The translations under genes were made by a program, and so were the position numbers. DNA of 64,000 nucleotides, from NCBI RefSeq assembly GCF_030384885.1, contig NZ_CP128613.1, one strand, 5' to 3'. A model generated the notes under the pieces. It saw nothing but the letters and a program-made list of their open reading frames with translations, was not told the origin of the DNA and ran no database searches. Shown here one piece after another: positions 16,573-64,000 of the stretch. The stretch is from Escherichia coli. Lineage in GTDB: Bacteria; Pseudomonadota; Gammaproteobacteria; Enterobacterales; Enterobacteriaceae. Each line of letters begins with the position of its first letter. Within the stretch, counting starts at the first letter, position 1.

Positions 16573-18337
<1,765 letters not shown>

Positions 18338-51898: not shown

Positions 51899-52582
51899 TT
51901 ATTTTTTGTTTTTTCGCTGCCGGGTTTCAGCAGGTTGAACAGTGTCGAACTGGAGATTAGCCATATTGATGGACAACTTCAGATACTTCAGGTTATTAGG
52001 TGAAACGCCTTTTAATGTCAGATTAATGTCTTGCCATTGACCTGGCATTAATTGCAGGGTGGAGTTCATGGTGGTGTTGAACAGCAGTCGCTGCCACTTT
52101 GCCAGCGCTTTGGCATCGGTGGGTCTTTCATTGCCCCATGTGGCTTGAAAGCCAATATTTGATACGGGAACGCTTAATAGGTTGACCAGCGAAATACGAA
52201 TAACGCTGCCATTTTCAACCGCATCAATAGCCAGCACCCGGCCTGCCAAACCAACCGAGCCATTGTTTAAAATGAAGTATTTTGTTTGTGCTGGGTTAAA
52301 TTCGGTGAAGACAAATTCGTCCTGTTTGTCTTTGACTGCCTTTACTACACCCGCCAGCACTTTAGTGGTGTTTGCAATATTAATTTGTTGATTTTCAATA
52401 ATTTCTATTTTTCTTTTATATTGTTCTTGTTCTTTTTCAAGAATCTCTATTTTACTTTTTTGCAATTCTTGCTGTTTGACAAGATCGTCGATCAGATTCG
52501 CTTTCTCAATATAGTCACACCCAGTCAATACCCAGAGTGGCAATGTTATCAACATGCTTAATAGTGCTTTTTTGATGCTCAT
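51899..52582 (-). CDS. SadB-like lipoprotein encoded upstream of the adhesin
   Basis: 227-aa ORF with a lipobox (LTGC) after the signal peptide, a coiled-coil segment (QQELQKSKIEILEKEQEQYKRKIEIIENQQ) and a C-terminal domain; only 43 nt from the adhesin start on the same strand. Confidence 0.75.
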   Translation of the reverse strand: MSIKKALLSMLITLPLWVLTGCDYIEKANLIDDLVKQQELQKSKIEILEKEQEQYKRKIEIIENQQINIANTTKVLAGVVKAVKDKQDEFVFTEFNPAQTKYFILNNGSVGLAGRVLAIDAVENGSVIRISLVNLLSVPVSNIGFQATWGNERPTDAKALAKWQRLLFNTTMNSTLQLMPGQWQDINLTLKGVSPNNLKYLKLSINMANLQFDTVQPAETRQRKNKK

Positions 52583-53155
52583 AGGGTGAATTCCTTTTCA
52601 TGATCCCGATACGTTAACTGTTACGGCGTAATCATCCTTTTTATGAATGATTCGAGTGGAAAATATACGCTATATAAATTTATAAGAGACTTTTTCTATT
52701 AATTGTTGTATTAATTGGTAGTGCGAACATGACATTAAATGTCAGACAATTTCAGATTGTAGCCAATAATATTAATCGCGCGGATTTTAATGATCGATGT
52801 CAATCAATGTCAAATGTTTCACCGGATGAAAACACCGACCAGGAGAAATATTAATATTCAGCATGGTGATGTTTTCTTGGGAAGTGTGTGATTCTGAGCG
52901 ATAAATATAAATAATTAATGGCTGTTACAGGCATTAATGTGCATTAATTCATTGTTATCGCTTATATATCACTTTTTTATTCCATACCATAATTTCAGAA
53001 TTTAGCCTGTAATATGCGCTTCAAAGAGCCGGTGAGATGGAAGCAATAGTGATAAGAATGTTAAAGATATCCGATATCTGGTATCAGGCTCCTGCATGTG
53101 CCAGCAGGAGCGAGTAAATCGTGAGAGGCTGTGATTACAGCGGTGAGACAGGTAC

Positions 53156-53518
53156 TTAAAATGCGGTCTTAGAGAATCCGGTCATCTCTTGCAGGCCCAT
53201 TTCACGGCCCAGCGCGGTCATCGGATGCACAACTACCAGTCCGCGAACACTTTTCTTCAGCTTGCCCATATCAGCCTGCTCTTTTTTGGTAATCGCGCGC
53301 TGGAAGGGCATTTTCATCAGTTTTTGCGCTTCTTTACTGAGTTTCTGGCTGTGAACTTCACGCAGGCGAGCAATTTCGGCTTCCAGCGTGGCTTTTTCTT
53401 TTTCCAGTTCGGCATATTTATCTGCGGCTTCAACCAGTGACAGGTCAGCCTGCTGATGGCGGATAGCGTCCAGGCGATCGCTGAGACGTTTGATTTCGTT
53501 TTTTTCGACTTCTTTCAT
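53156..53518 (-). CDS. yibL: YibL (DUF2810, ribosome-associated protein)
   Basis: 120-aa [58 protein letters not shown]... Confidence 0.93.
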
Positions 53519-53801
53519 GTGATGACTTCTGATAGAGATAAATTTATAGCCTCTAGTATGCGCGACCAGGTGCTTTGTTCACAACAGATGGCATTGTAAT
53601 AGTTCCAGATTGTAACCATTAATGTGTTTGAAAATCACCCAATCTATTGATTAATTAGGAAATTTAAAGAAAAAAGATAGACAACAGAAGAGGATCATTA
53701 TTGAGGATTGAGCACGTTTTCCTTAATGTCATTTAGACCGGGATCTAAACTAAAATTGGCGGCCGCGCATTCCCGGCGCGGGGTAATACGGAGATATCAT
53801 C

Positions 53802-54011
53802 ATGGGCAAATTAGGTGAAAACGTTCCGCTTCTTATCGATAAAGCTGTAGATTTCATGGCATCGAGCCAGGCGTTCCGGGAGTATCTGAAAAAACTTCCT
53901 CCCCGCAATGCGATTCCATCCGGAATACCTGATGAAAGCGTGCCGTTATATCTACAACGTCTGGAGTATTATCGTCGGCTTTATCGGCCGAAACAGGTAG
54001 AGGAGAAGTAA
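53802..54011 (+). CDS. yibT: Small protein YibT
   Basis: 69-aa [37 protein letters not shown]... in the yibL-mtlR gap, where yibT lies in K-12. Confidence 0.75.
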
Positions 54012-54021
54012 GCGAAAGTAC

Positions 54022-54609
54022 TTACTTTTGAAAGGCTTTTTTTAAGCTGATTTTGGAAATCAGCTCTGTCAGTGAAAGGACCATTGTTGATCGCACAGCC
54101 TGTTGGTAACGCTGAATTTGCATTGCATACAAACTGGAGTCTGCGGGTTCAAACTGTGGCGGCGGTGGTAACGCCGCCACACAGTGCAGCTCACCAAAGG
54201 GGCCAAGAATTTCGTCGTCGGTAAAGGCGTACTCATTGCCGTCGTGATTTAGTTCTTCACGCAATGCCATCAGCAGTTCCGCATCTTCATATTCATGGCG
54301 GTTAATGACACCCAACCCGTAAATGAGTTTTAAACGCACAGAAAGATCGCCCAGCGGGCCATCGCCGTCGAGTAACGGTTCTACAGCATACTTCACCGCG
54401 TAATCGTCTTTGCGGAATACCTGAAGCACCAGAAGATTTACCGCCTCGGTCAAAAGCTCGACGGCGGTAATCAGAAAGCTTCGCACGGTTTTGCCAGCAT
54501 TCAGACGCTCAAGCACACGGTTTTCAAAGGCCTGGGTTTGTTCCATTGTTGCCTGCATATCTGACAATCTGTTATTCGGGCGCAGGGAGTCCTGCGCCTG
54601 GTCCACCAT
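54022..54609 (-). CDS. mtlR: Mannitol operon repressor MtlR
   Basis: 195-aa [56 protein letters not shown]... Confidence 0.96.
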   Translation of the reverse strand: MVDQAQDSLRPNNRLSDMQATMEQTQAFENRVLERLNAGKTVRSFLITAVELLTEAVNLLVLQVFRKDDYAVKYAVEPLLDGDGPLGDLSVRLKLIYGLGVINRHEYEDAELLMALREELNHDGNEYAFTDDEILGPFGELHCVAALPPPPQFEPADSSLYAMQIQRYQQAVRSTMVLSLTELISKISLKKAFQK

Positions 54610-55757
54610 TATTGCATTGCTTTATAAGCGGTTACCGCCTCGGATACAACCTCGCTGTTTGCATCAAGGCCAGAAATCTGCGCCAGTGCGGCTTGCGGGC
54701 CTTTGTTGGCGATCAGTGCTGCCAGTTCCTGAGCCTGCGGATCATCTTCACTGCGGAAGTGCATTGCAGCGGCAATACCTTCAATCAGGTTTTTATGTGG
54801 CAGACCATATTCCAGCGTTCCGAGCAGTGGCTTGATCAGACGGTCGCCAGCACTCAGTTTACGCAGCGGCTGACGGCCTACGCGCTCTACATCGTCTTTC
54901 AGATACGGGTTCTCAAAACGACCAAGGATTTTCTGGATGTACGCCGCATGTTTGTCCGCGTCAAAACCGTAACGCTTAATCAGTACAGCGCCACTTTCTT
55001 CCATCGCCCCTTTTACTACCGCGCGGATTTTCTCGTCGAGAATTGCGTCACGAATGGTCTGATGACCTGCCAGTTTTCCGAGGTACGCGGTTATAGCATG
55101 ACCTGTATTCAGGGTGAAGAGTTTACGCTCAACAAATGCCATCAGGTTGTCGGTTAACTCCATGCCTGGGATGTTCGGCAGTGCACCTTTGAACTGGGTT
55201 TTATCGACAATCCATTCGCTGAAGGTTTCGACTGTCACTTCCAGCGGATCGTTCGTTGCCGAAGCGGAAGGCGGTACGATGCGGTCAACGGCGGAATCCA
55301 CAAAGCCAACGTGTTCTTCTACCCACGCTTTGGCGTCTTCTGGCAGGGCGTTCATCACATGGCCTTTCAGTTGCGTGGTGCCGCGTACCATGTTTTCACA
55401 GGCGATAATGTTCAGTGGGGATTCATTACCTTGTTCTTCACGTTTCACCAGCCCTTTGGCGATTGCCGGAGCAATACGTTCCAGCACAACCGGGCCCACG
55501 GCGGTAGTGACTAAATCAACCTGAGCAATCAGATCAACGACATCATCACCAATGCTGCTGACAGCATTGACGCCAGAAACGGTATCTACCTGCTCGGTTT
55601 CACCGACCACATGAACCTGATAGCTATGACGGGCATTCAGGGCATCAAGTACCACCTGATTGACATCGGCAAACGTCAGTTGGATACCCGCGTCTGCCAG
55701 CAGTTTACCGATAAAGCCACGACCGATATTACCTGCGCCAAAATGTAATGCTTTCAT
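54609..55757 (-). CDS. mtlD: Mannitol-1-phosphate 5-dehydrogenase
   Basis: 382 aa from [34 protein letters not shown]...; the ORF track reads 88 codons upstream through the REP region; the ATG at 55755..55757 was checked. Confidence 0.96.
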
Positions 55758-55789
55758 AGTATTAACCTTCATCAATGTTTTTACCCGAG

Positions 55790-55980
55790 AGGGCTGGGGT
55801 GAGGCTTTTCCCTCACCCAAACCCTCTCCATGTGGAGAGGAGCCGCGCCGGATGCGGCGCAAACGCCTTATCCGGCCTACAAGAACGTGCAAATTCAACA
55901 AATTGTGCTTTGTTTTGTAGGCCTGATAAGCGTAGCGCATCAGGCAATTAGCCCCACCGTCTCCATGTGGAGAGAGTGGG
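55790..55980. repeat. REP/BIME cluster in the mtlA-mtlD intergenic region
   Basis: gccggatgcggcgcaaacgccttatccggcctacaag ... tgtaggcctgataagcgtagcgcatcaggc, plus ccctctccatgtggagag palindromes. Confidence 0.85.
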
Positions 55981-55986
55981 GTTGGA

Positions 55987-57900
55987 TTACTTACGACCTG
56001 CCAGCAGTTCCAGTACTTCATCTACGCTGGTGGTGTGCGCCAGACGCTCGATGACGGACTCATCATCCAGTGCGTTGGTCAGGCTGGTGATCACCTGAAT
56101 GTGCTCGTTGTTACGGGCAGCAATACCAATCACCAGGCGGGCAATGTCATCTTCTTCTTCACCGAAGCGCACGCCTTCCGGGTACTGGCAGAACACCACG
56201 CCCGTTTTCAGTACGCGATCTTTCGCTTCAACCGTACCGTGCGGTACCGCGATGGACTCACCCAGATAAGTCGGGGTCAGTTTTTCACGATCCAGCATTG
56301 CCTGAACGTATTCCGGCTCAACGTAACCACCTTTCACCAGCTGCTCGCCAGCAAAACGAATCGCTTCTTCTTTGGTGGCCGCTTTGCGACCGAGGAAGAT
56401 GTTTTCCGCACCCAGTTTGAAGAGGTTAGCACTGGAATCGTCAAAGCTGTCTTTCAGACTGTCTTTCACTTTTACTTCGTTTTCAGTATGGCGCTGGGCA
56501 GCAACCAGACGTTCGGTCAGGCTGGTGTACAGGCCGCTGTCGAGGAAGTTGGTCAGCGAAATATGCTGTGCCTGCGGAACCTGGCGCATAGCGCGTTCGG
56601 TCAGGTCACGGTGAGTGATGACCAGGTCCACATCTGGCGGCAGGTTGTTGATCGCGCTGTTAGTAACAGAAATCTGCGACAGACCTGCATCCTGAATTTT
56701 CTTACGCAGCACACCTGCGCCCATCGCACTGGAACCCATACCGGCATCACAGGCAACGATGATTTTACGGACGTGGCTCAGGTCGTTAGTCACATCGCCC
56801 GCAGACAGCGGAGACGCACCTTTAGACTCAGCTTTCATGTCCTGCATACGACGAGTTGCTGCTTCAATATCATCTTCATCTTTCACTTTGCTGGTTTTCA
56901 GCAGAATGGCAGAGACAACGAAGGAGACTGCCATCGCCGCACACACACCCGCGATGTTAGCGAAGTAAGCACCTTTTGGCGTCATCGCCAGTACCGCAAG
57001 GATAGAGCCCGGAGATGCCGGAGAAACCAGACCACCGCCCAGGATAGTCAGCGTGAACACGCCAGTCATACCGCCGAGGATAACGGCCAGAATCAGACGC
57101 GGATTCATCAGCACATACGGGAAGTAGATTTCGTGGATACCCCCCAGGAAGTGAATGATTGCCGCACCGCCCGCAGACTGTTTAGCGCTACCACGGCCAA
57201 AGAACATGTACGCCAGCAGAACACCCATACCCGGACCTGGGTTAGCTTCAATCAGGAAGAAGATGGATTTACCCAGTTCATGGGACTGCTGAATACCCAG
57301 CGGCGAGAAGATACCGTGGTTAATGGCGTTGTTGAGGAACAGGATTTTCGCCGGTTCAACAAAGATAGACGCCAGCGGCAGCATGTCATGGACAACCATG
57401 AAGTTAACGCCCGCAGCCAGCATTTTGGACAGGGCTTCAACAATTGGGCCAATGCCGAGGAACGCCAGAATAGCGAGGATCATCCCGATGATGCCAGCGG
57501 AGAAGTTATTCACCAGCATCTCAAAACCGGATTTGATCTTACCGTCTACCCAGCGGTCGAAGTGCTTAATGCACCAGCCGCCCAGCGGACCTGCAATCAT
57601 AGAACCGAGGAACATCGGCATATCTGCGCCGACGATAACGCCCATTGTGGTGATGGCACCGACTACGCCGCCACGTTCGCCGCCTACCAGCTTACCACCG
57701 GTATAACCGATCAGTAGTGGCAGGAGATAAGTGATCATCGGCCCGACCAGCTTCGCCAGCGTTTCGTTCGGTAACCACCCTGTTGGAATAAATAATGCGG
57801 TGATAATACCCCACGCGATAAACGCGCCGATATTTGGCATCACCATGTTGCTGAGGAAACGACCAAAGCTTTGCACTTTGATCTTAATATCGGATGACAT
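55987..57900 (-). CDS. mtlA: PTS mannitol-specific EIICBA component
   Basis: 637-aa [40 protein letters not shown]... Confidence 0.98.
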
Positions 57901-58039
57901 AAAAACACCCCTTCTTATGTTTGCTGTCGCGCAGGCTGGAAGCCCGAGGTTTTTTGTTAATGTGGCGGCAGAGGTAGCCGGACCTTGTGGATAGTGCGAA
58001 ATCTGGCACTGAATCGGTTAACTGTCCAGTCGACGGCTT

Positions 58040-58265
58040 TTTGTGTGATATGAATCACATAAATATAGGGGGTAGAGAGGTAATTGACGTGATATACATC
58101 ACAAAATACTTGTGTAAAAAAGCAACAAGACGACGATTTTCGCTAAAAATGGCATTTAAATGTGAGTAATGTCACATTTTTGTTTTGTTAGTTTGTTGAA
58201 TCTTTGTGATCTGAATCACAAGATATTTTCTTACGGCGTTCACCTGATGTGATCTGCAGCATGTT
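58040..58265. promoter_or_regulatory. mtl promoter region with clustered CRP-binding sites
   Basis: TGTGA-N6-TCACA matches at 58044..58059 (tgtgatatgaatcaca), 58089..58104 (gtgatatacatcacaa) and 58205..58220 (tgtgatctgaatcaca), plus a half-site at ~58248. Confidence 0.85.
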
Positions 58266-58436
58266 ATGCCTTCGTCATAAAATCGTTATGTAACTAAGCA
58301 ACTCATAACCTCTAAAAATTATTCTTTGGTGTTATGGCGAGAATCGCGAACCCGAATTATTGTCAAAATATCAGCCTGACTCCCTTCTGGCTGCCAGCCA
58401 AAAAACAACACCGATAAACGTGAATCCGAGGCAGAT

Positions 58437-58799
58437 ATGTTTCTAAACTATTTCGCGTTGGGAGTGCTGATCTTCGTCTTTCTGGTGATTTTTTATGGAA
58501 TCATCGCGATACATGACATCCCTTATCTGATTGCCAAAAAGCGCAATCACCCCCATGCCGACGCTATTCATACGGCGGGCTGGGTGAGCCTGTTTACTCT
58601 GCATGTTATCTGGCCGTTCCTGTGGATCTGGGCGACGCTCTATCAACCGGAGCGTGGCTGGGGTATGCAGTCACATGTTGCGTCGCAGGAGAAAGCGACT
58701 GACCCGGAAATCGCCGCACTTTCTGACCGAATTTCCCGGCTGGAGCATCAACTCGCCGCCGAGAAAAAGACTGACTATTCCACGTTCCCGGAGATCTAA
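58437..58799 (+). CDS. yibI: DUF3302 inner membrane protein YibI
   Basis: 120-aa [48 protein letters not shown]... Confidence 0.92.
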
Positions 58800-58801
58800 A
58801 T

Positions 58802-59938
58802 ATGGATCTATTGATTGTTTTAACTTACGTGGCGCTGGCGTGGGCGGTCTTTAAAATCTTCCGCATTCCGGTAAATCAGTGGACGCTGGCGACGGCGGCG
58901 CTGGGAGGCGTGTTTCTGGTGAGTGGTTTGATTTTGTTGATGAACTACAACCACCCTTACACTTTTACCGCACAGAAAGCGGTGATTGCTATTCCCATCA
59001 CGCCACAGGTGACGGGGATCGTGACTGAAGTCACTGACAAGAATAATCAGCTTATTCAGAAGGGCGAGGTGCTTTTTAAGCTCGACCCGGTACGTTATCA
59101 GGCGCGAGTCGACAGGCTTCAGGCTGACCTGATGACGGCGACGCATAATATAAAGACACTGCGCGCGCAGCTCACTGAAGCGCAAGCCAATACCACCCAG
59201 GTTTCAGCGGAGCGTGACCGCTTGTTTAAAAATTATCAACGTTACCTGAAAGGCAGCCAGGCGGCGGTAAATCCGTTCTCGGAACGTGACATCGACGATG
59301 CGCGGCAAAACTTCCTCGCGCAGGATGCGCTGGTGAAAGGTTCGGTGGCGGAACAGGCGCAAATCCAGAGCCAGCTCGACAGTATGGTTAACGGTGAGCA
59401 GTCGCAGATTGTCAGCTTAAGGGCGCAGCTTACTGAAGCAAAATATAACCTTGAGCAGACCGTCATTCGCGCGCCGAGCAATGGCTACGTTACTCAGGTA
59501 CTGATCCGCCCAGGTACATACGCAGCTGCCTTGCCGCTACGTCCGGTGATGGTTTTCATCCCCGAGCAAAAACGGCAAATTGTCGCCCAATTTCGGCAGA
59601 ACTCGCTGTTACGTCTGAAACCCGGCGATGATGCGGAAGTGGTGTTTAACGCGCTACCTGGGCAGGTGTTCCACGGCAAACTGACTAGTATTTTACCTGT
59701 CGTGCCAGGCGGTTCGTATCAGGCGCAGGGGGTACTGCAATCATTAACGGTCGTACCCGGCACGGACGGTGTGCTGGGAACCATCGAACTGGACCCTAAC
59801 GATGATATCGATGCCTTACCCGACGGCATCTACGCCCAGGTGGCAGTTTACTCCGACCATTTCAGCCATGTTTCGGTGATGCGGAAGGTGCTGCTAAGAA
59901 TGACCAGTTGGATGCATTATCTTTATTTGGATCATTGA
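58802..59938 (+). CDS. yibH: HlyD-family membrane fusion protein YibH
   Basis: 378-aa ORF with an N-terminal TM helix and coiled coils, adjacent to yibI. Confidence 0.92.
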
Positions 59939-60395
59939 GGGGGGCGGGGGAGATTATGGAACTTTGCTCCCTGCAAGGACTAATTATTTTTGCATATTAT
60001 TTCATCGGCTGTGATGATTTTTCGTTAATATCCATTATGTTAAGAAGTTCGGGATGAGTGTGAACTCATTGGATTTTTTATCCGTCTTGATCTGCCGAAG
60101 GATCAGACTATACATTGTCGAGATCGCAATGATGATATGAGTTGTTCCTCTGCCACGACTCTAATCAAAAAAGAGCAGGAGTGCTTTTCCATCTATTGCG
60201 ATGATGGCTTTATTATCTGAAGGATGACAATCACATTTAAAAATATATAATTTATAGATCACAATATAGGTTCATGGAATATATGTATACAACTATTTTT
60301 CTCTTCACTTTTAATTATCGCATTCATTATAACACTAAGTTAAAAAAACTCCTGGAGAGTGAGTTATTAATATATTTTTAAATATAATTAAGTTA

Positions 60396-60917
60396 TTATT
60401 CATCGATGCATTTTATAGAATCATCAATGGCTACAATAGTACTATTAACTCTCCAATTTATATTTTTATTATCATTGCAAATATTAACTGAATCTATATC
60501 AATGATTTTTCTATTTTTATCTTTTATTTTATTTACAGTTTCAATGCAATCAGCGACAAGTTGGTGTGGATTTAGATTCTTCAGATATGGTCTTATGATC
60601 TTTCCCTTGCTTAATAAATAGCATGTATAGGATTCGGAAAGTCCAGCATCTATTTTGTACATCATTATTCTAGATAAGGATGTGAGAAATGCCTTGTTAT
60701 CATTAGCAGCCATATATGCCAGTCCGAGTTCAGCCTCTGCGGCTTTACATGAAAAATAGCTAAATGAACACGCTTTTCGTCCCTCTTGGGTACTGGCTGA
60801 TATTAGTGCCCATAATATTGCCTTGTCTGCCAAATCCAACTCTCTCTGAAATTGGTTTACAGTAACTGCATTCGCAGAAATAGAGAAAAAAAGCACAATT
60901 GTTAATAACCTTGCCAT
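60396..60917 (-). CDS. Putative secreted immunity protein for the orphan Rhs toxin tip
   Basis: 173-aa, very AT-rich ORF starting 4 nt after the stop of the orphan rhs fragment; N-terminal signal peptide (MARLLTIVLFFSISANA); immunity role inferred from position. Confidence 0.6.
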   Translation of the reverse strand: MARLLTIVLFFSISANAVTVNQFQRELDLADKAILWALISASTQEGRKACSFSYFSCKAAEAELGLAYMAANDNKAFLTSLSRIMMYKIDAGLSESYTCYLLSKGKIIRPYLKNLNPHQLVADCIETVNKIKDKNRKIIDIDSVNICNDNKNINWRVNSTIVAIDDSIKCIDE

Positions 60918-60921
60918 ATTT

Positions 60922-62334
60922 CTAGTCCGTCACTGTTAATGTGCTATCTGGCTCTGAAAATATTAGCCCATTTAATTTTTGCATGTCATTAGATGAACCA
61001 GTTATACAACCCTCGGAACAGAATCGAGGTCCTAAAGATGGACCAAAAGCGTTTAAACAACTATGTGTTAAAAATCCATCACGATTATACGTTTCTGTAT
61101 TTGCTGACGGTACTAAACGTATACCATTAGGTTTTCTATTAGTTGCTCCAGGACCATTAACATTCCAGGTCCATACCCCTTGAGGTATTGGGCCTCTATT
61201 TTGTAAGTGTGTACAACCAGGATTATTTTTACATTGCATATTATTACCATTATTACCAGAGGCGACTGAAATAGTAAGCACACCATAAGAATTATCATCA
61301 CTTGGCGTATCTGAAACGCATGAAAGCATACCTAAAGTTATGCTGTATAAACAGGTCGCTAATCCCAACGGGTCAATATCAGTTATCGGATTCAACGGAT
61401 ACTGATAAAAATTCCATCCCCCCTTCAGCCCAATCGGATCCTGAGTGATATACCGCCCCTGCAGCGGGTCATAATAGCGGTGGCGGTTGTAATACAGGCC
61501 GGACTCCTCATCATACTGCTGACCCGGCAGGCGGATGAGCTGCTGCAGCTGGTGCGGGTTCTCTTCATTCAGCAGGTTGCCCCATTCATCATATTCTGCG
61601 TACCACGCTGTTGCCCCTTCCGTGCTGACAAGCGCCAGCGGCAGGCCGCGATGGTCGCAGTGGTACAGGTGGATTTTTCGCGCCGGCGTGTACACCGGGT
61701 CCATCTGGTTTTGCATCTGCTCCACCGTCAGGCCGCACGATGCCAGCCAGCGGCGGCTTTCCTCACTCACCCGGTCAGCCAGGATTTCACTTTCCAGCCG
61801 GTCGAGCATCTGCACCAGCACCGGCGGGAACACCACATGGCCTCCGTCTTCGCCGCCGGACTGCTGAAGGGCATCCGCCAGGCTGCGGCGCTGCGTTTTC
61901 GCCAGCTCACCGGTGGCGGTTTCGACCCTGATGAGTGGCGTGAAACTTCCCGGCAGGTATACCGTCTGGATGCGGGTTCTGTCGTTCTGTATCGTGGTCA
62001 GCCGGTCGCCATCCCAGCCGTACCAGGTCACTTCCGGTTTCCTTGACAGCGACATCCAGCCCGTCAGGTCCCGTTCACGCCGCCACACCCGTTTTGCCAC
62101 CCTGCGGCCCAGCGGGTCGTAAAGATAGCGACTTTCGACCAGCGGCTCTGCATATTGTGTCCGCGTGTAGTGCACCAGCCGGTGCCGGCTGTCGTAATGG
62201 TACCGGTGAGTCCGCTCATCATCCGTGCGGATAACCCCTTCCGGGATGAGGTCGGTTTTCTCCGTCAGCCTGCCGTGACGGTCATACCGGTAAAGATAGT
62301 GCGCGTCACGGGCGATACGGTTATCCGGCCACAT
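60922..62334 (-). CDS. Orphan Rhs C-terminal fragment: core repeats plus alternative toxin tip
   Basis: N-terminal ~320 aa identical to the upstream rhs 3' region (YD-repeat core ending ...[27 protein letters not shown]); followed by a ~145-aa divergent, low-GC C-terminal domain containing THSC...SEGCITG. Confidence 0.85.
61385..62133. repeat. Direct repeat copy A (rhs core 3' segment), identical to 63252..64000
   Basis: The identical antisense ORFs 61480..62046 and 63347..63913 (188 aa) and direct base comparison show an offset of 1867 bp; identity runs to the window edge. Confidence 0.9.
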
Positions 62335-62447
62335 GCTGAGGGTGCTGTCCGGGTGCAGCTCCGGGTCGGGCAGGCGGTTACCTGCCGGGTCTGTTGCATA
62401 CGGGATATCAATGCCCAGGTTACATATAATAATAAGAGCAATTAACT

Positions 62448-62774
62448 TTATTTATTTATAATGCGCTTACTTAATACAAACCATTGAATATACCCTCCTG
62501 ACAGAAAATAAAGCCATATTATTATCGCCATAATATACTTGCTATCAATTCTTACGCCAATAATGTCTGAAATACTCCCTATAAATATTAGAGCAATAAA
62601 GAATACTATGCCTGTTGGAAAACATATTACCATCATTCCATAAGACATGAGACTAATTAACTCGCTCACATCACGAGTGGAGTCTAATAGTGAAAGTCTA
62701 TGCATGGAAAAGAATAGCATTAAAAGTGATAACGCCAGCCATATAGCTCTGAATGAAAAAATAATATATTTCAT
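62448..62774 (-). CDS. Putative membrane immunity protein for the primary Rhs toxin tip
   Basis: 108-aa AT-rich ORF with about three hydrophobic helices; its ATG overlaps the rhs TAA stop by 1 nt (TAATG), suggesting translational coupling. Confidence 0.65.
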
Positions 62775-64000
62775 TACATCACTCCGGTGAATACAAATCT
62801 AATAAAACGTCCAATGTTATTTCCGGAGCACTTCATCTTACATGTTTCTAAAGAATCATTAGACCAGTCTTGGCAGTTTTTAAATAGCCCTAAATTTATA
62901 GGTGTGAATATATCAGGCAATACAGAATAACGCGGCCTTACCTCTTTAAATTTCCCTTTTAAACAGTTCTCCACACAACTATTATCGGTTTCAACGAGGT
63001 CACAACGGCCAGCAGCTTCTTTTGTATCATTACTTGCTTTACCTGGCCCCCATAGACCATCTCCTTTTGATTCTCCCCGTTGGTCTTGGCCACCACAAGT
63101 ATAGTCCCCTTTACCATCTGGGACACAAAGATATTGATGATAGAACGGATTCCCCCATATATCTGGACCGCTTCTTTCACCAGTTCCGCCCATTGAATGC
63201 AGTGGCTTAATGCATTTTAGTGTTTCTAATCCTAATGGATCTATATTTGAGATCGGATTCAACGGATACTGATAAAAATTCCATCCCCCCTTCAGCCCAA
63301 TCGGATCCTGAGTGATATACCGCCCCTGCAGCGGGTCATAATAGCGGTGGCGGTTGTAATACAGGCCGGACTCCTCATCATACTGCTGACCCGGCAGGCG
63401 GATGAGCTGCTGCAGCTGGTGCGGGTTCTCTTCATTCAGCAGGTTGCCCCATTCATCATATTCTGCGTACCACGCTGTTGCCCCTTCCGTGCTGACAAGC
63501 GCCAGCGGCAGGCCGCGATGGTCGCAGTGGTACAGGTGGATTTTTCGCGCCGGCGTGTACACCGGGTCCATCTGGTTTTGCATCTGCTCCACCGTCAGGC
63601 CGCACGATGCCAGCCAGCGGCGGCTTTCCTCACTCACCCGGTCAGCCAGGATTTCACTTTCCAGCCGGTCGAGCATCTGCACCAGCACCGGCGGGAACAC
63701 CACATGGCCTCCGTCTTCGCCGCCGGACTGCTGAAGGGCATCCGCCAGGCTGCGGCGCTGCGTTTTCGCCAGCTCACCGGTGGCGGTTTCGACCCTGATG
63801 AGTGGCGTGAAACTTCCCGGCAGGTATACCGTCTGGATGCGGGTTCTGTCGTTCTGTATCGTGGTCAGCCGGTCGCCATCCCAGCCGTACCAGGTCACTT
63901 CCGGTTTCCTTGACAGCGACATCCAGCCCGTCAGGTCCCGTTCACGCCGCCACACCCGTTTTGCCACCCTGCGGCCCAGCGGGTCGTAAAGATAGCGACT
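62774..64000 (-). CDS. Rhs family protein, 3' end (core C-terminus plus toxin tip); 5' end outside window
   Basis: ORF open to the window edge; YD-repeat core ending ...[27 protein letters not shown], then a ~150-aa Cys-rich, low-GC C-terminal domain. Confidence 0.88.
63252..64000. repeat. Direct repeat copy B (rhs core 3' segment)
   Basis: Identical to 61385..62133; truncated by the window edge. Confidence 0.9.

Follow-up and report, generated by a model that had tools for sequence, protein, structure and literature searches.

A perfect core repeat is shared by the main and orphan genes of an Rhs toxin array at the rhsA locus of Escherichia coli and probably supports exchange of toxin tips

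At one end of a 64,000-nucleotide stretch of Escherichia coli DNA (contig NZ_CP128613.1 of RefSeq assembly GCF_030384885.1; the whole stretch is hereafter the window) lies an rhs toxin array that contains a long, perfect direct repeat. The array occupies the rhsA locus, with yibF/selA on one flank and yibH/yibI/mtl on the other, and reads on the minus strand as a full-length rhs gene with an RhsC-type tip, ybfB, a core fragment joined to a Tlde1-type tip, and an Imm57-family immunity gene (Table 1). This is the classical Rhs main-plus-orphan layout. Core segments have a guanine-plus-cytosine (GC) content of 60-66%, and tips and immunity genes 22-47%; the toxin tips lie at 38-40% (40% for the RhsC-type tip) against 61% for the core.

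The main rhs coding sequence runs from 66967 to 62774 (-) and encodes 1,397 amino acids in genomes identical to the window, which itself cuts the gene at 64000. One such genome is that of strain EC26 (NZ_CP060880.1), which has zero mismatches to the window over 51300-64000; its main protein matches the RHS_core model NF041261 with 2631.6 bits (cutoff 2000) over residues 1-1247. The main protein also has at least 12 significant Pfam RHS_repeat matches, a TIGR03696 (RHS-associated core) match at residues 1170-1247, a DUF6531 domain and a weak, partial PAAR_motif match (E = 0.37, residues 3-20). Its RhsC-type tip has no match in Pfam, NCBIfam or PDB sequences. The stop codon of the main gene is overlapped by ybfB, whose product matches no Pfam or NCBIfam family and differs at 4 residues from the YbfB encoded at the native rhsC locus of EC26. 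The Prokaryotic Genome Annotation Pipeline (PGAP) names the main gene RhsC by its tip, despite its position at the rhsA locus.

The orphan open reading frame (ORF) is intact, running from an ATG at 62334 to 60922 (-) and encoding 470 amino acids. It matches only positions 937-1261 of the RHS_core model and is without the N-terminal delivery part. The first ~110 bp of the orphan core fragment (62311-62420) are of ybfO type and show 6 differences from the main gene. The equivalent ORF of other strains carries the PGAP name 'tlde1 domain-containing protein'. The Tlde1 family consists of peptidoglycan LD-carboxypeptidases/transpeptidases with the published catalytic motif HXX14-17-(S/T)HGCh (PMC9638812), and the orphan tip has H-x15-S-E-G-C-I, in which the His, Ser, Gly, Cys and hydrophobic positions are kept but Glu stands in place of the His before Gly-Cys. 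No relative of solved structure was found by sequence for either tip at E <= 1. The Imm57 gene begins 5 bp past the orphan stop, and the N-terminus of its product resembles a signal peptide, which would fit a periplasmic target of the tip. Toxin activity, immunity activity and export are putative. Where both tips are present at this locus (two-tip genomes), the orphan appears in the PGAP annotation only as a partial 'RHS repeat-associated core' pseudogene, and the intact Tlde1 tip (60922-61356) goes unannotated.

Table 1 Features of the rhs array, in window coordinates
Feature	Position	Strand	Basis
Imm57-family immunity gene for the orphan tip	60396..60917	-	Pfam PF15596, E = 3.7e-44; annotated Imm57 in window-identical genomes
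Orphan toxin tip, Tlde1-type (LD-transpeptidase/carboxypeptidase-like)	60922..61359	-	Pfam PF10908 Tlde1_dom, E = 4.6e-6, ORF residues 366-450
PxxxxDPxGL motif, orphan	61360..61389	-	Translation
Orphan core fragment, second repeat copy, ~1,035 bp	61385..62420	-	Perfect over 61385-62310
Spacer between ybfB and orphan core fragment, 27 bp	62421..62447	-	Junction alignment; K-12 ybfO comparison
ybfB, presumed immunity gene for the RhsC-type tip, 108 amino acids, hydrophobic	62448..62774	-	Annotated YbfB in window-identical genomes
RhsC-type C-terminal tip of main gene, 150 amino acids plus stop	62774..63226	-	Protein identical to K-12 and EC26 native RhsC tips
PxxxxDPxGL motif, main gene, P1238-L1247	63227..63256	-	Translation; NCBIfam core and Rhs_assc_core models stop at residue 1247
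Main rhs repeat copy (3' core, full-length gene)	63252..64000	-	Exact identity to 61385-62133

Compared with E. coli K-12, the array is a mosaic of two K-12 arrays, rhsC and rhsA. The segment that starts with the main gene and closes with the orphan core is colinear with rhsC-ybfB-ybfO (96.0% over 5.7 kb), the colinearity with the K-12 rhsC array (rhsC-ybfB-ybfO-ybfC) taking in the main tip, ybfB and the orphan 5' junction, including the exact ybfB-spacer-core junction. The orphan tip and Imm57 gene are instead the counterpart of yibS/yibW-yibV (90%) in the K-12 rhsA array (rhsA-yibA-yibJ-yibG-yibS/yibW-yibV), which lies at the same chromosomal site, between yibF and yibH. The genes yibA, yibJ and yibG of that array are missing here, and the Tlde1 tip and Imm57 gene, which are pseudogenes or truncated in K-12, are intact.

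The repeat is shared by the main gene, in its 3' core, and the orphan core fragment, as the first-pass annotation of the window had stated; both are on the minus strand. Positions 61385-62133 and 63252-64000 agree at 749/749 sites, in direct orientation and at an offset of 1867 bp. On neither strand does the window contain further occurrences of the repeat's 20-mers, and 749 bp of identity could effectively not arise by chance. To the left, similarity is random (8-17/50) below 61335; the intervening 26 partly matching bases (61359-61384 versus 63226-63251) encode the common PxxxxDPxGL motif, and perfect identity ends in the second codon of that motif, at the core/tip boundary. To the right, the repeat is truncated by the end of the window at 64000. 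It had been expected to continue, and in EC26 it does: the perfect run there is 926 bp (61385-62310 versus 63252-64177), beyond which homology extends to ~62420/64287 with 6 mismatches, BLAST aligning the main and orphan copies over 1,048 bp at 98.7% and the homology covering ~1,040 bp in all. Each copy also contains a 188-amino-acid ORF on the opposite strand of the GC-rich rhs core (61480-62046 and 63347-63913, +); these duplicated ORFs are most likely shadow ORFs of a high-GC coding strand and not real genes.

Distribution was determined across 5,426 complete E. coli genomes. The Tlde1/Imm57 module is common (3,690 genomes), mostly as the K-12 allele (~90% identical), as is the RhsC-tip/ybfB module (2,779 genomes, twice in 23). 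The 926-bp core haplotype, at an identity of at least 99%, is found in 11 genomes, with a next best match of 98.2%. The same 11 genomes match positions 21001-46000 of the window at 99% or more (next best 98.3%) and by this measure form one clone. Nine of them, independently assembled, have the same two-tip array as the window, with the identical perfect repeat in eight. The other two, Ec73552 and 2013C-4282, have a single-tip form, in which yibF is followed by a full-length rhs gene fused to the Tlde1 tip, Imm57 and yibH, without the RhsC-type tip or ybfB at the locus. The window strain has four private derived single-nucleotide polymorphisms (SNPs; 14556, 40940, 46268 and 48002) relative to the 11 closest complete genomes and the outgroup and is therefore a distinct isolate, outside the set of complete genomes compared.

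Near-isogenic with the two-tip strains, Ec73552 has the array of EC26 and the window less exactly 1,867 bp, a segment made up of the RhsC-type tip, ybfB, the spacer and one copy of the repeat. Aligned to EC26, it gives two arms that overlap by the repeat, with zero mismatches in ~7 kb on each side (~14 kb of flank) and one SNP inside the repeat tract. At the six upstream diagnostic sites it has the bases of the main copy, and at tip-proximal sites those of the orphan copy; its 1,392-amino-acid protein is identical, save for A1156V, to an in-silico recombinant of main residues 1-1238 and orphan residues 317-470. Comparison with related genomes thus recovered the deletion that recombination across the repeat predicts. 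These sequences support the view that the core repeats let an orphan tip move onto the full-length gene. Two outcomes of recombination had been proposed in the first-pass annotation: a tip swap with deletion of the intervening tip and immunity gene, which Ec73552 bears out, and amplification of the array, for which the complete genomes offer no example.

The second single-tip genome, 2013C-4282, has the 926-bp haplotype at 100% identity and a Tlde1 tip with a 9-bp in-frame deletion (window 61240-61248). Its main core differs by 29 SNPs in 1.3 kb (window-equivalent 64524-65846), and ~13 kb of flank outside the array differ by only 2. The SNP cluster resembles a patch converted from a different rhs copy; as to its donor, none of seven fetched arrays matches the patch better than the EC26 version does.

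The direction of change in Ec73552 is indicated by two SNPs. At window position 17773, T is present in Ec73552 and in each of the nine complete two-tip genomes, and C in the window strain, 2013C-4282 and the nearest outgroup, 2017-02-2CC; these alleles place Ec73552 inside an otherwise two-tip clade, with the two-tip window strain outside it. At 61634, a derived A is found in the single copy of Ec73552 and in the orphan copy, but not the main copy, of the two-tip strain 23CRST028. Most simply, a G>A mutation arose in the orphan copy of a two-tip ancestor, with the deletion following later in Ec73552; the shared allele would then place the Ec73552 crossover between 61635 and 62310, an interval of 676 bp. 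Ec73552 thus likely arose by deletion from a two-tip array. A candidate third synapomorphy of Ec73552 and 23CRST028, in a YadA-like gene (window 47699), was discarded as the SNP is private to Ec73552.

That YadA-like trimeric autotransporter adhesin gene (46828-51855, -) contains a 213-bp tandem array at 49475-50361 (4.2 copies, 95% matches). The gene measures 5,028 bp in the window; EC26, XJW9B263, 23CRST028 and Ec73552 each have 5,241 bp, 2013C-4282 has 5,880 bp and 2017-02-2CC has 5,538 bp. Because gene length varies among near-identical genomes, repeat copy number is changing within the clone.

Taken together, it is very probable that the repeat is the homology arm of an Rhs main-plus-orphan toxin array at the rhsA locus, that recombination across it swaps the tip, and that its two copies were recently homogenised. 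Homologous recombination between copies 1,867 bp apart, presumably of the RecA type, would remove the first tip, ybfB, the spacer and one copy of the repeat. The deletion would fuse the delivery-competent full-length gene to the Tlde1 tip and so swap the expressed toxin. The reverse reaction, or transfer of a cassette with core on both sides, would bring a tip to the head of the array and push the old tip downstream. The 926-bp tract would have been homogenised on the branch leading to the clone, most likely by gene conversion that presumably ran from main to orphan, and would not yet have diverged.

Several points weigh against this interpretation. The recombination is seen through the sequences of other strains and not in the window strain itself, and amplified (three-copy) arrays are absent among the complete genomes. 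Polarity depends on two SNP characters, SNPs being very scarce in the clone, and 2013C-4282, which falls in a trichotomy, may have kept an ancestral single-tip state. Campbell-type insertion in a single event makes the copies identical only when donor core and resident core are the same. As for function, export and toxicity are predictions from sequence, with a weak PAAR match (E = 0.37) and, in the Tlde1 motif, an E in place of the published H.

The 926-bp perfect identity is unusual among E. coli main/orphan pairs. In K-12, the corresponding copies are 97.5% identical in rhsC/ybfO (longest perfect run 224 bp) and 95.1% in rhsA/yibJ (103 bp); in the arrays of XH990, EC42405 and 2020CK-00188 the values are 96.5% (143 bp), 95.5% (244 bp) and 97.1% (398 bp). 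The haplotype is rare (11/5,426 genomes), which indicates recent homogenisation. Both copies carry this clone-specific haplotype, which continues unbroken upstream in the main gene; in the orphan it yields at 62310 to the ybfO-type sequence common to other ybfB cassettes. The pattern fits a main-to-orphan conversion tract bounded on one side by the end of homology; an alternative to such a tract is displacement with the left crossover at the extreme 3' end of the core. Identity in most members of the clone is as recency predicts, because SNP density within the clone is ~1e-4 per site.

Strain 23CRST028, in which the copies differ at four sites, bears on whether conversion continues. One of the four is the orphan SNP at 61634, and the others form a patch in the main copy (63560, 63576 and 63588). 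The patch carries K-12 rhsC-type alleles, suggesting a short conversion from a third paralogue at another locus. The orphan SNP is absent from the main copy of the same strain. Of the original proposal of recent duplication or ongoing conversion, recency fits the 95-97.5% identity found elsewhere; continuing conversion between the two copies is not evident, the new orphan SNP of 23CRST028 having stayed out of its main copy.

The most serious rival holds that the single-tip form is ancestral in the clone and that the repeat is a fresh duplication, created when an RhsC-tip/ybfB cassette inserted into a full-length rhs-Tlde1 gene (C-terminal displacement), with no later conversion. The single-tip strain 2013C-4282 lies outside the clade marked by T at 17773 and has all 926 bp at 100% identity, and the main core of the two-tip strains is identical to its own from 64523 to the tip boundary. 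The ybfB cassette is evidently mobile, with the same junction at three loci before five tips, and the orphan itself begins with ~110 bp of cassette-type (ybfO-like) sequence and continues in the resident haplotype. However, donor core would remain at the 3' end of the main gene after either one crossover or two, save where the left crossover lay in the last few bases of the core, and all other ybfB-headed arrays are 2.5-4.5% diverged between main and orphan. The donor would moreover have been foreign, the cassette being only 98.3% identical to the strain's own rhsC locus. For Ec73552, the derived SNP in common with the 23CRST028 orphan and the nesting within the 17773-T clade favour deletion. 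We regard the insertion scenario as possible but unlikely.

EC26 also retains its native rhsC locus, where the tip protein is identical and ybfB is present a second time. This locus was ruled out as the cassette donor, the two arrays being 98.3% identical over the cassette and 96.2% overall; the latter value argues that it was not a recent donor. The closest RhsC-tip/ybfB cassette found (99.8%) is at an rhsF-like locus of 2020CK-00188. At the native rhsC locus of EC26, an IS3 element interrupts the ybfO orphan, and remnants of ISAs1 (H-repeat) follow ybfC.

Cassette structure is conserved across arrays. The ybfB-spacer-core junction is the same in six arrays at rhsA, rhsC and rhsF-like loci, and it stands before five different tips (ybfO-CT, CT-B, CT-A, Tlde1 and f3-type). 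The core fragment after ybfB always measures 1,016-1,051 bp (~1,035 bp), and the fragment after yibA 453-482 bp, with a conserved junction, in four arrays; after yibG it is ~110-220 bp. Because both length and 5' junction follow the upstream immunity gene whatever the tip, the length of an orphan core belongs to the cassette upstream of it. Cassettes that move as circles, or flanked on both sides by core homology, would give such linkage. An internal deletion between orphan core fragments is seen when XH990 is set against EC42405.

A bolder extension, which we hold only tentatively and think doubtful, is that the RhsC tip and ybfB form a discrete 1.87-kb cassette that is excised as a circle and re-integrates by core homology, has moved among rhsA, rhsC and rhsF-like loci, and makes the two-tip and one-tip states of the clone a reversible switch. 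Were this true, the 926-bp tract would mark a very recent cycle of excision and re-integration or of conversion, and toxin switching by orphan capture would take place on epidemiological timescales in wild E. coli. Loss of the cassette plausibly carries no immunity cost, because an identical tip and a second ybfB are present at the native rhsC locus.

The identity is very improbably the result of selection for an orphan protein that is expressed from a separate toxin-antitoxin-like module, as in Salmonella. It would draw on the intact 470-residue ORF with its ATG at 62334, on a promoter-like site at 62548->62521 (-), and on the internal promoters in the shared core, 89 nt upstream of the motif, that drive the orphan toxin and immunity genes in the system of Starsta 2020 (PMC7043789). 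However, the ATG at 62334 is an internal Met of the core without an evident upstream ribosome-binding site, and a simple scan found no promoter-like site in the 3' core (specifically no sigma-70-like promoter comparable with Salmonella P2), a result that is not evidence of absence. Internal expression would in any case be compatible with a role in recombination. Constraint at the protein level cannot explain the identity because synonymous sites are perfectly conserved too and homologous orphan fragments elsewhere are 2.5-5% diverged; purifying selection was ruled out as its cause on the divergence of this same segment in other arrays.

An assembly artefact, with a duplicated or collapsed contig end, is extremely unlikely. 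Although the repeat reaches the window edge and perfect repeats of 0.9 kb are of a type that short-read assemblers mishandle, the array recurs in nine complete genomes that separate projects produced (China, Colombia, Ecuador and others) from human, bovine, turkey and farm sources. The window strain, set apart by its four private SNPs, is a tenth isolate with it. Gene content is coherent, the junction is conserved, and in 23CRST028 the array carries copy-specific SNPs.

The closest known parallel is the rhs-main/rhs-CT-orphan locus of Salmonella Typhimurium LT2, where a full-length rhs gene with its immunity gene is likewise followed by an orphan core fragment with another tip and immunity gene, and where recombination in the core brings the orphan tip onto the full-length gene with loss of the main tip and the immunity gene that goes with it (Koskiniemi 2014, PMC3967940). 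The homology in that study was 522 bp at 95% identity, compared with ~1,040 bp, of which 926 are perfect, here; the recombinants came from the laboratory and from mice, whereas Ec73552 is a natural isolate; and the tips differ, being RhsC-type and Tlde1-type in the present array. Loss of the main immunity gene was argued to be a cost, with prior duplication proposed to keep immunity, and here the second ybfB and identical tip of the native rhsC locus plausibly lift that cost. Internal expression of the orphan module would penalise such deletions (Starsta 2020, PMC7043789).

In the model of Jackson 2009 (PMC2935791), dissociated tips with core fragments trail an intact gene on its downstream side, the core is uncoupled from the tip, and displacement through core homology and circles is proposed; core regions within E. 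coli loci were also noted there to be identical. The present array shares the arrangement and the exchange via core homology. It differs in that a single integration would leave its identity unexplained, requiring an extra homogenising step or an unusual crossover, and in that the length and junction of the orphan fragment follow the upstream immunity gene. The circular intermediate of that model is hypothetical for the present array.

Orphan cdiA-CT/cdiI arrays (Poole 2011, PMC3150448) similarly hold silent tip/immunity modules downstream, each opening with homology to the main gene that could mediate tip replacement; they differ in delivery, by CdiA two-partner secretion versus an Rhs YD-repeat shell, and in the motif, VENN versus PxxxxDPxGL. 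The Salmonella Tlde1 type VI secretion system effectors (PMC9638812) have the same Tlde1_dom and the spaced His...Ser-x-Gly-Cys-hydrophobic pattern. Salmonella Tlde1a, however, is a stand-alone effector and not an Rhs C-terminal tip, its motif has (S/T)HGC where SEGC is found here, and its immunity protein is Tldi1 as opposed to Imm57.

The behaviour described is already known for Rhs loci, E. coli being the species that first yielded descriptions of them, and leaves the accepted picture unchanged. Rhs arrays store spare tips, and core repeats are thought to change the toxin deployed, an idea that has so far come mainly from comparative inference and a single evolution experiment in Salmonella. 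To this the locus adds a clean example from nature, in which near-isogenic isolates differ by the exact 1,867-bp product, and the redundant immunity copy elsewhere in the genome may show why the swap was affordable. Its value lies in confirmation and in a convenient pair of strains for measuring switching rates and fitness effects.

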